DNA from: Escherichia coli O157:H7
GTDB lineage: Bacteria > Pseudomonadota > Gammaproteobacteria > Enterobacterales > Enterobacteriaceae
Length of the DNA stretch: 64,000 nucleotides
Assembly: GCF_013167455.1 (NCBI RefSeq)
Contig: NZ_CP038328.1
Strand: one strand, 5' to 3'
This document shows positions 5,344 to 34,310 of this stretch, piece by piece. The notes under the pieces are model-generated. The model saw only the letters and a program-made list of their open reading frames with translations, searched no databases and had not been told where the DNA came from. Each line of letters starts with the position of its first letter. The first letter of the stretch is position 1. Both the position numbers and the translations under genes were made by a program.

Positions 5344-5811
5344 GTGAAGCTGCAACTTGTCGCCGTGGGAACGAAAATGCCGGACTGGGTACAAACCGGT
5401 TTTACCGAGTACCTGCGTCGTTTTCCGAAAGATATGCCCTTCGAGCTGATTGAAATTCCGGCCGGAAAACGCGGCAAGAATGCGGACATCAAGCGCATAC
5501 TCGACAAAGAGGGTGAGCAGATGTTGGCGGCCGCAGGCAAAAACCGCATTGTCACCCTCGATATTCCAGGCAAGCCCTGGGATACGCCGCAGTTAGCCGC
5601 TGAGCTGGAACGCTGGAAGCTGGATGGTCGCGACGTCAGTCTACTGATTGGCGGGCCTGAAGGGTTGTCGCCTGCCTGTAAAGCGGCGGCGGAGCAGAGC
5701 TGGTCGCTGTCGGCGCTTACCCTCCCCCATCCGCTGGTTCGCGTGCTGGTCGCAGAGAGTCTGTACCGGGCGTGGAGCATCACCACCAACCATCCTTATC
5801 ACCGTGAGTGA
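5344..5811 (+). CDS. rlmH: 23S rRNA (pseudouridine1915-N3)-methyltransferase
   Basis: 155 aa ORF with GTG start 4 nt after rsfS stop; SPOUT methyltransferase RlmH/YbeA. Confidence 0.92.
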
Positions 5812-16123: not shown

Positions 16124-16507
16124 GTGTTACAACTTCTTTTAGCAGTTTTTATTGGCGGTGGTACGGGAAGCGTGGCGAGATGGCTGTTAAGTATGCGATT
16201 TAACCCGCTGCATCAGGCGATTCCGTTGGGGACGCTGGCAGCAAACCTGATTGGGGCATTCATCATAGGAATGGGATTCGCCTGGTTCAGCAGGATGACG
16301 AACATTGATCCAGTGTGGAAAGTATTAATCACCACCGGATTTTGTGGCGGTCTAACAACCTTCTCAACATTTTCGGCAGAAGTGGTGTTTTTGTTACAAG
16401 AGGGCCGCTTTGGCTGGGCATTACTGAACGTTTTCGTCAACCTTCTGGGGTCTTTTGCCATGACCGCACTGGCATTCTGGCTGTTTTCGGCCTCAACCGC
16501 ACACTAA
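16124..16507 (+). CDS. crcB: fluoride ion channel CrcB/FluC
   Basis: 127 aa hydrophobic ORF with GTG start; recognised as CrcB. Confidence 0.92.
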
Positions 16508-16512
16508 AGACC

Positions 16513-16541
16513 AAAAAAAACCCGCTGATTAAGCGGGTTTT
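16513..16541. terminator. bidirectional rho-independent terminator between convergent crcB and cspE
   Basis: aaaaaaaacccgctgattaagcgggtttt: GC stem with flanking A and T runs. Confidence 0.7.
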
Positions 16542-16560
16542 GAATTCTTGCTGACGTATC

Positions 16561-16770
16561 TTACAGAGCGATTACGTTTGCAGCAGAAGGGCCTTTGGCA
16601 CCGTTAGTGATTTCGAACTCTACGCGCTGACCTTCAGCAAGAGTTTTAAAACCATTAGTCTGGATTGCAGAGAAGTGTACGAACACGTCTTTGCTGCCGT
16701 CTTCCGGAGTAATGAAACCGAATCCTTTGGACTCATTAAACCACTTAACGTTACCTTTAATCTTAGACAT
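16561..16770 (-). CDS. cspE: cold-shock-domain protein CspE
   Basis: 69 aa from internal ATG of the track ORF ([20 protein letters not shown]...); RNP1 motif KGFGFI. Confidence 0.95.
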
Positions 16771-16944
16771 CAAAATTACCTTTACATGAAAAATAGACAC
16801 AAATGCTGTGTCGGTTACCAGTACACCAATTGTGGTACGCTTTGTCCAGTGCAACTTTACTAAAAAGTGATAAAAATCGCGTTATTTTTGATGTTGCTTA
16901 TTTTAGTTATTGATTTTAAAGAAGTTACTAAAACTTCATTTGTC

Positions 16945-17505
16945 TCAAAACTGAAAGCGCATCCAGGCAAAGTACACATTGCCATTGTTGTAGGTACCCG
17001 GAATGTAGGTCATCTGAAAAGTAACTGGGCCATAACCCACGGAGGCCAATGGCAGTAGAACCGGGAGAGGGATGTAATTCCAGTTATCGCGTGCCGTTAC
17101 GCCAGCGGTGAATCCCAGACCTAAATGAAAATTTTCATCCGCCAGCGGTCGCCAGGTACTTTCCCATCCGTATCCGGCAATCGGTTCCCATTTGTTCCAC
17201 GAGTCCTTAAATGCCATGGCATACAGGCCATGCCAGTTTCCTTTTTCATCCCAACGCGACAGGCCAAAACCGCCACCCCACGGTCGCTCGTTATAGCGAT
17301 CGGTTTTTTCTTTGTCGTAAGCGAAACGTGCATGCCAGGTGATGGCAGGAATATATAAATCATAATGTTCAGGCTGTTGCCAGGTTTGTACAATATTTTC
17401 TCTAAACGTTGTCATCCACTCATCTGCGTTAGCAAAAACTTTACCAACGCTGATTAACTGAATAAAAACAAAGGAAAAGATAGCGACATATTTACTCACG
17501 TTCAT
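16945..17505 (-). CDS. pagP: lipid A palmitoyltransferase PagP (outer membrane)
   Basis: 186 aa from internal ATG ([14 protein letters not shown]...); signal peptide; C-terminal aromatic residue typical of OM beta-barrels. Confidence 0.93.
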
Positions 17506-17990
17506 TTGTGACCATAAAACATTTATCAAAAATCTACTACTAGCATAGCAAAGCTACAATTAACATAACCTTAACAGCCCCAACATAAAGAATAATCTGA
17601 ATAGCTGCTCTATTTATTTCCGCTTGTTCAAGTTAAATATTTCCGCGCATCGATTTAAAATGACACATCGTTTTCTGCGATGGGAATAGTCATAAAAGAA
17701 AAAGCTAGTTGTTTCTGACAACAAAATGCAACCAAGAAAAAATGACTTATTTTTTAATAAGATACCAAAAATCATCTTAACAGGGAATATATTATATATC
17801 GTCAACCCACGCCCATTGCAGATTATTTTTTGAGCACACAACCGCAGCTAACACCATTGCAATTAACAAATTTGCATCAATCCTCCATCAATTTACACAC
17901 ATTATTATGTGATAATTGCCAACCGCTAAATATGCGTTTTGTTATCTACGTATAAAAACAGCAACTTCAATGTCTTAATGGCAGTTTTTC

Positions 17991-18004
17991 TTGATTTTAA
18001 TCAG
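17991..18004. promoter_or_regulatory. putative FNR-binding site upstream of dcuC
   Basis: TTGATtttaATCAG matches FNR consensus TTGAT-N4-ATCAA at 9/10 positions; 90 nt upstream of the dcuC ATG; dcuC is anaerobically induced by established knowledge. Confidence 0.5.
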
Positions 18005-18093
18005 CATTCATCGCCAATTTATTGGGCATATTTTTTCCTTAAGCTTTAGGAATTTTTTATTATTTACTTTGGGGCCTGGAGACAGGAAAAATT

Positions 18094-19479
18094 ATGCTGA
18101 CATTCATTGAACTCCTTATTGGGGTTGTGGTTATTGTGGGTGTAGCTCGCTACATCATTAAAGGGTATTCCGCCACTGGTGTGTTATTTGTCGGTGGCCT
18201 GTTATTGCTGATTATCAGTGCCATTATGGGGCACAAAGTGTTACCGTCCAGCCAGGCTTCAACAGGCTACAGCGCCACGGATATCGTTGAATACGTTAAA
18301 ATATTACTAATGAGCCGCGGCGGCGACCTCGGCATGATGATTATGATGCTGTGTGGATTTGCCGCTTACATGACCCATATCGGCGCGAATGATATGGTGG
18401 TCAAGCTGGCGTCAAAACCATTGCAGTATATTAACTCCCCTTACCTGCTGATGATTGCCGCCTATTTTGTCGCCTGTCTAATGTCTCTGGCCGTCTCTTC
18501 CGCAACCGGTCTGGGTGTTTTGCTGATGGCAACCCTATTTCCGGTGATGGTAAACGTTGGTATCAGTCGTGGCGCAGCTGCTGCCATTTGTGCCTCCCCG
18601 GCGGCGATTATTCTCGCACCGACTTCAGGGGATGTGGTGCTGGCGGCGCAAGCTTCCGAAATGTCGCTGATTGACTTCGCCTTCAAAACGACGCTGCCTA
18701 TCTCAATTGCTGCAATTATCGGCATGGCGATCGCCCACTTCTTCTGGCAACGTTATCTGGATAAAAAAGAGCACATCTCTCATGAAATGTTAGATGTCAG
18801 TGAAATCACCACCACTGCCCCTGCGTTTTATGCCATTTTGCCGTTCACGCCGATCATCGGTGTACTGATTTTTGACGGTAAATGGGGTCCGCAATTACAC
18901 ATCATCACTATTCTGGTGATTTGTATGCTGATTGCCTCCATTCTGGAGTTCCTCCGCAGCTTTAATACCCAGAAAGTTTTCTCTGGTCTGGAAGTGGCTT
19001 ATCGCGGGATGGCAGATGCGTTTGCTAACGTGGTGATGCTGCTGGTTGCCGCTGGGGTATTCGCTCAGGGGCTTAGCACCATCGGCTTTATTCAAAGTCT
19101 GATTTCTATCGCTACCTCGTTTGGTTCGGCGAGTATCATCCTGATGCTGGTATTGGTGATTCTGACAATGCTGGCGGCAGTCACGACCGGTTCAGGCAAT
19201 GCGCCGTTTTATGCGTTTGTTGAGATGATCCCGAAACTGGCGCACTCTTCCGGCATTAACCCGGCGTATTTGACTATCCCGATGCTGCAGGCGTCAAACC
19301 TGGGCCGTACCCTTTCGCCCGTTTCTGGCGTAGTCGTTGCGGTTGCCGGGATGGCGAAGATCTCGCCGTTTGAAGTCGTAAAACGCACCTCGGTACCGGT
19401 GCTTGTTGGTTTGGTGATTGTTATCGTTGCTACAGAGCTGATGGTGCCAGGAACGGCAGCAGCGGTCACAGGCAAGTAA
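18094..19479 (+). CDS. dcuC: anaerobic C4-dicarboxylate transporter DcuC
   Basis: 461 aa polytopic membrane ORF recognised as DcuC; uninterrupted. Confidence 0.95.
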   Translation: MLTFIELLIGVVVIVGVARYIIKGYSATGVLFVGGLLLLIISAIMGHKVLPSSQASTGYSATDIVEYVKILLMSRGGDLGMMIMMLCGFAAYMTHIGANDMVVKLASKPLQYINSPYLLMIAAYFVACLMSLAVSSATGLGVLLMATLFPVMVNVGISRGAAAAICASPAAIILAPTSGDVVLAAQASEMSLIDFAFKTTLPISIAAIIGMAIAHFFWQRYLDKKEHISHEMLDVSEITTTAPAFYAILPFTPIIGVLIFDGKWGPQLHIITILVICMLIASILEFLRSFNTQKVFSGLEVAYRGMADAFANVVMLLVAAGVFAQGLSTIGFIQSLISIATSFGSASIILMLVLVILTMLAAVTTGSGNAPFYAFVEMIPKLAHSSGINPAYLTIPMLQASNLGRTLSPVSGVVVAVAGMAKISPFEVVKRTSVPVLVGLVIVIVATELMVPGTAAAVTGK

Positions 19480-32195: not shown

Positions 32196-32624
32196 ATGTA
32201 TAAGACAATCATTATGCCAGTTGATGTATTTGAAATGGAATTGAGCGACAAAGCTGTTCGCCACGCTGAATTCCTCGCCCAGGATGACGGAGTTATTCAT
32301 CTACTTCACGTACTACCCGGGTCAGCCAGCCTGAGCCTGCACCGTTTTGCCGCTGATGTGCGTCGTTTTGAAGAGCATCTGCAACATGAAGCAGAAGAAC
32401 GTTTGCAAACGATGGTCAGCCACTTCACCATCGATCCTTCCCGCATTAAACAACATGTCCGTTTTGGTAGCGTGCGGGATGAAGTCAATGAGTTAGCAGA
32501 AGAACTGGGGGCTGATGTTGTAGTTATTGGTTCTCGCAACCCATCGATTTCGACCCATCTGTTAGGTTCTAACGCCTCGAGCGTGATCCGCCACGCCAAT
32601 CTGCCTGTACTGGTCGTTCGCTAA
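32196..32624 (+). CDS. uspG: universal stress protein G
   Basis: 142 aa ORF recognised as UspG/YbdQ. Confidence 0.9.
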
Positions 32625-32644
32625 CAGATAAAAGTATTTATGCC

Positions 32645-32676
32645 GCCCTGCCTGGAACATCCCGGCAGGGCTTTTT
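32645..32676 (+). terminator. rho-independent terminator downstream of uspG
   Basis: gccctgcctggaacatcccggcagggcttttt: 8-bp GC stem followed by T5. Confidence 0.6.
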
Positions 32677-32684
32677 AATGCCAT

Positions 32685-32714
32685 AAAAAAGCCGCCAGGT
32701 TTGACCCCGGCGGC
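32685..32714 (-). terminator. rho-independent terminator downstream of ahpF (minus strand)
   Basis: plus-strand aaaaaagccgccaggtttgaccccggcggc; on the minus strand this reads as a GC stem followed by a T6 run. Confidence 0.6.
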
Positions 32715-32744
32715 TAAGCAATTGCAGGTGAATCTTACTTCTTC

Positions 32745-34310
32745 TTATGCAGTTTTGGTGCGAATCAGGTAGTCAAAAGCACTCAGAGAGGCTTTGGCAC
32801 CTTCGCCAGTGGCGATGATGATCTGCTTGTACGGAACCGTCGTACAGTCACCCGCTGCGAACACGCCTTTCACGTTGGTTTCGCATTTCGCATCAATGAT
32901 AATCTCGCCCATGCGGTTACGTTCGACTGCGCCTTCGAGCCAGTTGGTGTTCGGCAGCAGACCAATCTGCACGAAAATACCGGCCAGTTCGATGTTGTGA
33001 ATATCGCCGCTGACACGATCTCGATATTCCAGACCAACGACTTTGCTGCCGTCGCCTTTCACTTCCGTGGTTTGCGCATTCAGAATAATGTCGACGTTTT
33101 TCAGGCTGCGCAGTTTGTCCTGCAGAACCTGGTCGGCTTTCATTTCTGGCGCAAATTCCAGCAGCGTTACGTGCTCAACGATACCCGCCAGGTCAATTGC
33201 CGCTTCCACGCCGGAGTTACCGCCGCCGATAACCGCTACGCGTTTACCTTTAAACAGCGGGCCGTCGCAGTGCGGGCAGTAGGTCACGCCTTTGGTGCGA
33301 TACTGATCTTCGCCCGGAACGTTCATGTTGCGCCATTTTGCACCGGTCGCCACGATAATGCTGCGTGCTTTCAGTACCGCGCCAGAAGCTGTTTCAATCT
33401 GATGCAGACCACCTTCAACTGCTGCTGGGATCAGTTTGCTGGCGCTCTGGCTGTCGATCACATCAACGTCGTATTCATCAACGTGAACTTTCAGTGCGCC
33501 TGCCAGCTTCTGCCCTTCAGTCTTCGGTACAGAAATGTAGTTTTCGATATCAACGGTATCGAGGATCTGACCACCAAAACGTTCGCCCATCAGACCGGTA
33601 CGGATGCCTTTACGTGCGGAGTAAATTGCTGCCGCTGCACCCGCCGGGCCGGAACCGACGATTAATACGTCATAAGCATCACGCTTGTTCAGCTCTTCTG
33701 CCGCACGTTTTTCCGCGCCCGTATCAATTTTGGCAACGATTTCAGTCAAAGTCATGCGGCCCTGACCAAACTCTTTCCCGTTCACGAACACTGCCGGAAC
33801 GCCCATCACGTTACGATCAGTGATCTCGTTCTGGAAGGTGCCGCCGTCAATTGCAGTGTGCTTGATGCGCGGGTTCAATACGCTCATCAGGTTCAGCGCC
33901 TGTACCACGTCCGGGCAGTTATGGCAAGAGAGCGAGTAATAGGTTTCGAATTCAAAATCACCGTCAATATGGCGAATCTGCTCCAGCAGAGACTGCGCTT
34001 CTTTCGACGGATGACCACCGGTCCACAGTAACGCCAGTACCAGCGAGGTGAACTCGTGGCCCAGCGGGGAGCCTGCAAAACGTGGCCCCTGGTTAGAACC
34101 TGGGTTGGTGATCAGGAAAGACGGCTTACGCACCGGCAAGCTGTTATCTTCTTTAAAGGTGACTTTGTCTGACAGTTCTGCGATTTCAGCCAACAGTTCC
34201 TTGATTTCTGCCGATTTAGCGCTGTCATCCAGCGTGGCAATTAACTCAACAGGCTTGGTCAATTTCTCAAGGTAAGCCTTGAGTTGAGTTTTCATATTTG
34301 TGTCGAGCAT
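32745..34310 (-). CDS. ahpF: alkyl hydroperoxide reductase subunit F (NADH-dependent flavoprotein)
   Basis: 521 aa from internal ATG ([11 protein letters not shown]...); redox Cys pairs CHNC and CPHC; FAD/NAD Gly-rich motifs. Confidence 0.96.

Follow-up and report, generated by a model that had tools for sequence, protein, structure and literature searches.

Control of the divergent genes pagP (crcA) and dcuC is known from Escherichia coli K-12, in which published data establish FNR occupancy, FNR-dependent expression of dcuC, both σ70 peaks, H-NS occupancy and repression of pagP. The FNR dependence of dcuC was first shown by Zientz et al. 1999, as cited by Myers et al. 2013 (PLoS Genet). The latter assign dcuC to category 1, directly activated genes, with FNR ChIP peaks at 655298 and 655340; by RNA-seq the gene is listed as 'Activated' by FNR (Table S8), and its aerobic/anaerobic ratio of 0.05 makes it 20-fold higher anaerobically (Table S12). 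On the opposite side, the PhoP site of E. coli crcA is 32 bp from the mapped transcription start site (TSS; Minagawa 2003 via Harari 2010). In E. coli biofilms, deletion of hns derepresses pagP 18-fold, and SlyA, for which three putative sites have been proposed, antagonises H-NS (Chalabaev 2014). RcsB and GadE provide further inputs to pagP control.

The same region is described here in E. coli O157:H7, the identity of the 64-kb window (the whole stretch of DNA analysed, 64,000 nucleotides), established by a 100% match in sequence comparison. The gap between pagP and dcuC is very probably the control region published for K-12, made up of an FNR-activated promoter of class II type, a PhoP-activated promoter and a spacer silenced by H-NS and relieved by SlyA. 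The FNR site, the PhoP-dependent pagP promoter and the H-NS silencing of the region are already known and published, so that their confirmation in the O157:H7 window adds no new biology; the only lead worth following up is a hyperdivergent core in the middle of the gap.

The pagP–dcuC intergenic gap

The gap comprises 588 bp (17506–18093) between the divergent genes pagP (16945–17505, minus strand, ATG at 17505), encoding lipid A palmitoyltransferase, and dcuC (18094–19479, plus strand, ATG at 18094), encoding the anaerobic C4-dicarboxylate transporter. Both coding sequences are defined by their open reading frames (ORFs) and by RefSeq annotation, and the annotation of a 100% identical O157:H7 record has nothing between them. 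The GC content of the gap is 0.32, against about 0.5 for the flanking genes, and its length is equal in K-12 and O157; known silencing by nucleoid proteins, acting on a pair of divergent promoters, accounts for both the AT-richness and the length. The two strains have 100% identical DcuC proteins, and within the dcuC-proximal 243 bp of the gap 3 positions differ from K-12, none of them within the FNR site, the −10 hexamer or the 5′ untranslated region (UTR) of dcuC.

A preliminary description, made from the letters of the DNA, had presented the interval as AT-rich and non-coding, with an FNR-like site at 17991–18004 upstream of dcuC and enough room for the pagP promoter as well, and this reading of the raw sequence was sound. 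Its coordinates, sequence and AT-richness are correct; the single long ORF lacks conservation, being interrupted by in-frame stops in the K-12-type and B2-type alleles; a PhoP box, a −10 hexamer and a σ70 ChIP peak are present at the pagP end; and the identical K-12 site upstream of dcuC has been both predicted and found to be bound by FNR in ChIP.

Across the Enterobacteriaceae loci compared (L003–L082), PagP is far less conserved than DcuC, with 70–88% and 88–98% identity to the O157 proteins, respectively, and the dcuC neighbourhood is lost in about a third of these loci. The sole RNA-family match near the gap is the Rfam cspA thermoregulator RF01766 (123 bits; gathering score 78), which spans cspE and its leader at 16513–16955 on the minus strand.

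The FNR site and the dcuC promoter

The FNR site, TTGATTTTAATCAG (17991–18004, centre 17997.5), matches 9 of the 10 specified bases of the FNR consensus (TTGAT-N4-ATCAA) and ends 89 nt before the dcuC ATG. K-12 carries an identical sequence, and Table S6 of Myers 2013 lists for dcuC/pagP a ChIP-bound K-12 site at 655281, CTGATTAAAATCAA, with a position weight matrix (PWM) score of 12.38 bits. Given the offset of 777 between U00096.2 and NC_000913.3, this site coincides to the base with the K-12 homologue of 17991–18004.

Taken alone, the motif is weak and marginally above chance. With one mismatch allowed, the consensus has 7 matches in the window, a count reached by 3 of 100 shuffles, against 2.3 expected; within the gap, 0.09 such matches are expected on both strands, and about 8% of gap shuffles hold at least one. 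Its conservation, the published ChIP data and a conserved −10 block downstream make it more than a chance match. Conservation was assessed in a set of 49 sequences, consisting of the window, K-12 and 47 loci with a divergent upstream dcuC and a matched DcuC N-terminus, drawn from 80 genome loci recovered with PagP. All 49 loci (Enterobacteriaceae) retain the site, in 48 of them at 85–99 nt upstream of the dcuC ATG. Changes cluster in the N4 spacer, which FNR does not contact, and the flanking DNA is unalignable between genera. In 47 of the 49 loci the right half-site reads ATCAG, with a conserved G, instead of ATCAA, and the T-rich 5′ flank of the site (TTT-TTGAT) is also conserved.

The lone positional exception is Citrobacter amalonaticus S646, in which the site is 327 nt from the dcuC ATG; here an insertion of roughly 235 bp just after the dcuC −10 carries ERIC-like inverted repeats (CCCCAGTCAC...CTCCTGGGGA).

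A second conserved block, TTTATTnGGCAYATT, is found 15 nt downstream of the FNR site and contains the putative dcuC −10 hexamer, CATATT (18027–18032, plus strand; CACATT in other genera), 22 nt after the FNR site. The anaerobic σ70 ChIP-seq peak of K-12 at 655235 maps to window position 18050, at limited resolution. The dcuC TSS is predicted near 18039, which would centre the FNR site at about −41.5, in class II geometry, a placement based on the spacing itself, on conservation and on this σ70 peak of limited resolution. Judged from the position of the −10 and the sequence, the dcuC 5′ UTR would then be about 55 nt long (18039–18093, plus strand), with the Shine–Dalgarno sequence AGGA at 18084–18087.

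In E. coli, a 14-nt segment at 18026–18039, covering the −10 and TSS region of dcuC, is 93% complementary to 18084–18097, which includes the Shine–Dalgarno sequence and the ATG. The pairing is not conserved in other genera, and it would block ribosome access only in transcripts starting upstream. Translational occlusion of dcuC was rejected, since no conserved pairs, and no conserved RNA structure in the dcuC leader, came out of RNAalifold on 20 species, and since the first arm lies upstream of the predicted TSS.

The pagP promoter

At the other end of the gap, a PhoP box, TGTTAA-GGTTA-TGTTAA (17560–17576, minus strand), has two mismatches to the consensus (T/G)GTTTA-N5-(T/G)GTTTA and is positioned 12 nt, one helical turn, upstream of the pagP −10 hexamer TATGCT (17542–17547, minus strand), which aligns with the S1-mapped −10 of Salmonella pagP, TATTAT. 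Both the core of the box, GTTAAG-N5-ATT, and the −10 show conservation between genera, and the K-12 σ70 ChIP-seq peak at 655742 (U00096.2) maps to window position 17543, on the −10. On the pagP strand, the distance from the −10 to the ATG is about 36 nt. The 32-bp distance given by Harari 2010 fits a pagP TSS near 17535; combined with the position of the −10, it suggests a start at 17535–17536 and a 5′ UTR of about 30 nt (17506–17535, minus strand).

Under anaerobic conditions in K-12, σ70 occupancy at the pagP promoter is up about tenfold and crcA mRNA about 3.4-fold. Despite this rise in σ70 occupancy, pagP is not listed as FNR-dependent in K-12. Park 2013 reports an ArcA PWM site in the pagP/dcuC gap, without ChIP binding; the PhoP box, with TGTTA repeated at 11-bp spacing as in ArcA boxes, may be this match. 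Genomic SELEX detected weak binding of RpoN holoenzyme and NtrC in the dcuC/pagP spacer at K-12 position 655760 (window about 17525), a low signal (35–50%) at array resolution. A σ54 promoter was considered and rejected, the best matches to TGGCAC-N5-TTGCW having 2–3 mismatches and being no commoner than in shuffled sequence. Scans of the gap for CRP, NarL, IHF and RcsB motifs gave no enrichment over shuffles.

The H-NS-covered spacer and a model for the region

Two H-NS ChIP-chip regions of K-12 (Myers 2013, Table S3), 654590–655558 and 655584–656283, map to window positions 17727–18695 and 17002–17701, respectively, and together cover the gap. At the FNR site, Table S6 of the same study enters nucleoid-protein overlap as 'None', though the H-NS region in Table S3 spans that site. 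A search of the gap with a strict SlyA consensus yielded no site with three or fewer mismatches and no enrichment over shuffles. Insertions of IS5 in the gap were repeatedly selected under kanamycin during laboratory evolution (Hoeksema 2018). In the natural isolate E. coli O18ac:H14 873.10, an IS1B and an IS3-family element are both found inside the pagP–dcuC gap.

The proposed arrangement has one promoter at each end of the gap with an H-NS-bound, AT-rich spacer between them. Under anaerobiosis, FNR would bind TTGATTTTAATCAG and activate a σ70-dependent dcuC promoter with its −10 located 22 nt downstream. PhoP would bind the direct repeat at 17560–17576, one helical turn upstream of TATGCT, with transcription of pagP starting near 17535. 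H-NS would coat the region and silence pagP, and SlyA, RcsB and GadE would counteract it. All experimental data on pagP/dcuC control come from K-12, and we infer that they transfer to O157.

A hyperdivergent central segment

The central 200 bp of the gap (17651–17850) differ from K-12 by 17.4%, as against 0–2.3% for every other gene and gap in 7.5 kb. Among 984 sliding 200-bp windows over 49.6 kb of alignable sequence, in which the mean divergence is 1.76%, this segment is the top outlier, with about double the divergence of the independent locus ranked next. Second in the window, for divergence between O157 and K-12, comes a stretch at about 32500–32800, which reaches 9% over 200 bp.

The segment occurs as discrete E. 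coli alleles. Seven E. coli genomes contain three allele classes, O157-type, K-12-type and B2-type, which are 14–18% apart and roughly equidistant; the K-12-type class, alone in being represented by more than one genome, differs internally by 0–3%. In 5,376 genomes, identity to the O157 segment is distributed discontinuously, with 454 genomes at 95% or more, 21 at 90–95% and 4,900 at 80–90%, so that about 454 of the 5,376 carry the O157-type allele. Recombination is indicated by one genome, in which a B2-like pagP stands beside a K-12-type centre. In Escherichia albertii, E. whittamii and Escherichia sp. E1V33 the central segment has diverged too far to tell which allele is ancestral. The pattern looks as if recombination had replaced alleles in a core, either free of constraint or under a different constraint, that two conserved promoters enclose. 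Intergenic regulatory alleles reportedly switch among E. coli strains.

The alleles also differ in a local inverted repeat. The K-12 allele (5395–5418 of the K-12 locus, L002) has an 8-bp hairpin followed by a T-run on the dcuC-direction strand, GCGCATCGATTAAAGATGATGCGT; O157 (17645–17682) is without it, its own hairpin being of 5 bp and on the opposite strand. The two alleles are set apart by clustered substitutions, ACACAT versus ATGCGT, which make the K-12 inverted repeat perfect, as quasi-palindrome template switching would.

Alternative readings of the region

Four other readings were weighed against the published control region. The FNR-like motif could be a chance match in AT-rich DNA, with dcuC controlled from elsewhere: matches at 9 of 10 positions are common in the window and in gap shuffles, as the counts given above show, and Myers 2013 remarks of dcuC, 'TSS not in peak region', which places the known TSS outside the FNR peak. 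The K-12 site is, however, bound by FNR in ChIP and dcuC is FNR-activated; moreover, the half-sites are conserved at a constant distance from dcuC, in 48 of 49 loci, amid flanks that are unalignable, and a conserved −10 follows at class II spacing with a σ70 peak nearby, so that this reading is highly improbable. Still less credence can be given to a 75-aa protein encoded by the ORF at 17614–17841 on the minus strand, which we regard as not a gene. Its frame is open in O157, but only in that allele: all non-O157 Escherichia alleles examined, K-12-type and B2-type included, have two to four in-frame stops or frameshifts. It would start at a TTG, with GCGG 1–2 nt upstream as the only candidate for a ribosome site and no real Shine–Dalgarno sequence, and it has neither a Pfam match nor a RefSeq annotation. 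The small ORFs of the gap in general have no Pfam family, and conservation of none of them extends past E. coli. It is very unlikely that the pagP strand also carries, besides the two promoters, a small RNA gene of its own. Wang 2016 predicted Ssr31 in the pagP/dcuC gap of Shigella flexneri 301, on the pagP strand from 694274 to 693980 (295 nt), with a positive RT-PCR result. Reckoned by synteny from Ssr5 in the dacA/ybeD gap, a counterpart would have its 5′ end at roughly 17813–17834 and its 3′ end at 17519–17540, and the minus strand of O157 has a perfect TATAAT at 17796–17791 and a weak terminator-like hairpin at 17682–17666. Against this, the evidence for Ssr31 is RT-PCR alone, without northern blot, RACE or mapped ends; the span so placed includes the pagP promoter itself; and the hairpin has only 5 bp and is not kept in K-12. 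A permissive Rfam scan of 16400–18400 returned nothing in the gap (best E = 3.4), and sliding 100-nt windows on both strands gave fold z-scores between −1.3 and +1.9, none below −1.4. A promoter and terminator scan found one plus-strand promoter-like match and one 5-bp hairpin, with promoter-like sites fewer than in shuffles. The anaerobic σ70 ChIP list of K-12 has no peak between the pagP and dcuC promoters, and no pagP or dcuC entry occurs in the available parts of the Adams 2021 3′-end tables or of the SMRT-Cappable-seq supplement. No other DNA in about 50 kb is as variable as this span, which is unalignable between Escherichia species, and the hyperdivergent centre is a further argument against a conserved small RNA or ORF there. 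The small RNA tentatively proposed in the preliminary description was therefore not upheld: the gap has no Rfam family, no stable or conserved structure and no intervening σ70 peak, and its centre is hypervariable.

The remaining reading concerns the central segment and would extend the published control region rather than replace its promoters. The central 200 bp could be a functional, lineage-specific module whose alleles tune the H-NS/SlyA silencing of pagP or dcuC to different degrees in O157, K-12-like and B2 strains, kept by selection or exchanged by recombination. A divergence of 17.4% against a background of 1.8%, with sharp boundaries, would fit such a module, as would the existence of three roughly equidistant allele classes 14–18% apart with little variation within a class, the single genome with a B2-like pagP and a K-12-type centre, and the location of the segment under H-NS upstream of a gene strongly controlled by H-NS. 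A neutral patch imported by recombination into an unconstrained spacer would fit equally, however, and the tolerance of the region to IS1, IS3 and IS5 insertions, together with its fast evolution between species, also speaks against a function; on balance, the module is unlikely. The more specific proposal, that 17651–17850 comprises three ancient discrete alleles, with flanks differing by about 1%, acting as a selected, exchangeable cassette that sets H-NS silencing of pagP/dcuC or encodes a lineage-specific transcript such as Ssr31, is a speculation that we consider quite unlikely. If the alleles did change pagP/dcuC regulation, this would be a natural case of promoter-region allele switching affecting outer-membrane remodelling in a pathogen; pagP serves lipid A palmitoylation and immune evasion, and its level of silencing would then vary by E. 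coli lineage.

Comparison with known systems

Ssr31 (Wang 2016) was placed in the same gap and on the same strand as pagP, but nothing in the O157 sequence or its conservation supports a small RNA. The gap shares with H-NS-silenced, SlyA-countersilenced promoters, such as pagP in biofilms (Chalabaev 2014; Szczesny 2018), a low GC content (32%) and coverage by H-NS; in contrast to these promoters, the strict SlyA consensus is absent from the gap. The pagP end resembles E. coli crcA and Salmonella pagP (Zwir 2012; footprinting and S1 mapping) in having a direct-repeat PhoP box by the −10, with a shared GTTAAG half-site, whereas the footprinted box of Salmonella pagP is one half-site further upstream, 23 nt from the −10 compared with 12 nt in E. 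coli, as noted by Harari 2010.

The dcuC end is like class II FNR promoters, in which FNR is centred at −41.5 and no −35 element is needed, in that 22 nt separate its 14-bp site from a −10-like hexamer; it differs from them in its right half-site, ATCAG rather than ATCAA, and its own position of −41.5 is a prediction. The dcuC promoter of K-12 shares with that of O157 all 14 bp of the site and its distance from the dcuC ATG; O157 differs from it by strain and by the 3 substitutions in the dcuC-proximal 243 bp.

The hyperdivergent core, finally, is similar to the regulatory switching reportedly described by Oren et al. in PNAS in 2014, in which the upstream region of a core gene exists as discrete, highly diverged alleles within one species. 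Here, by contrast, it is a 200-bp core between two conserved promoters that has been replaced, and not the promoters themselves.
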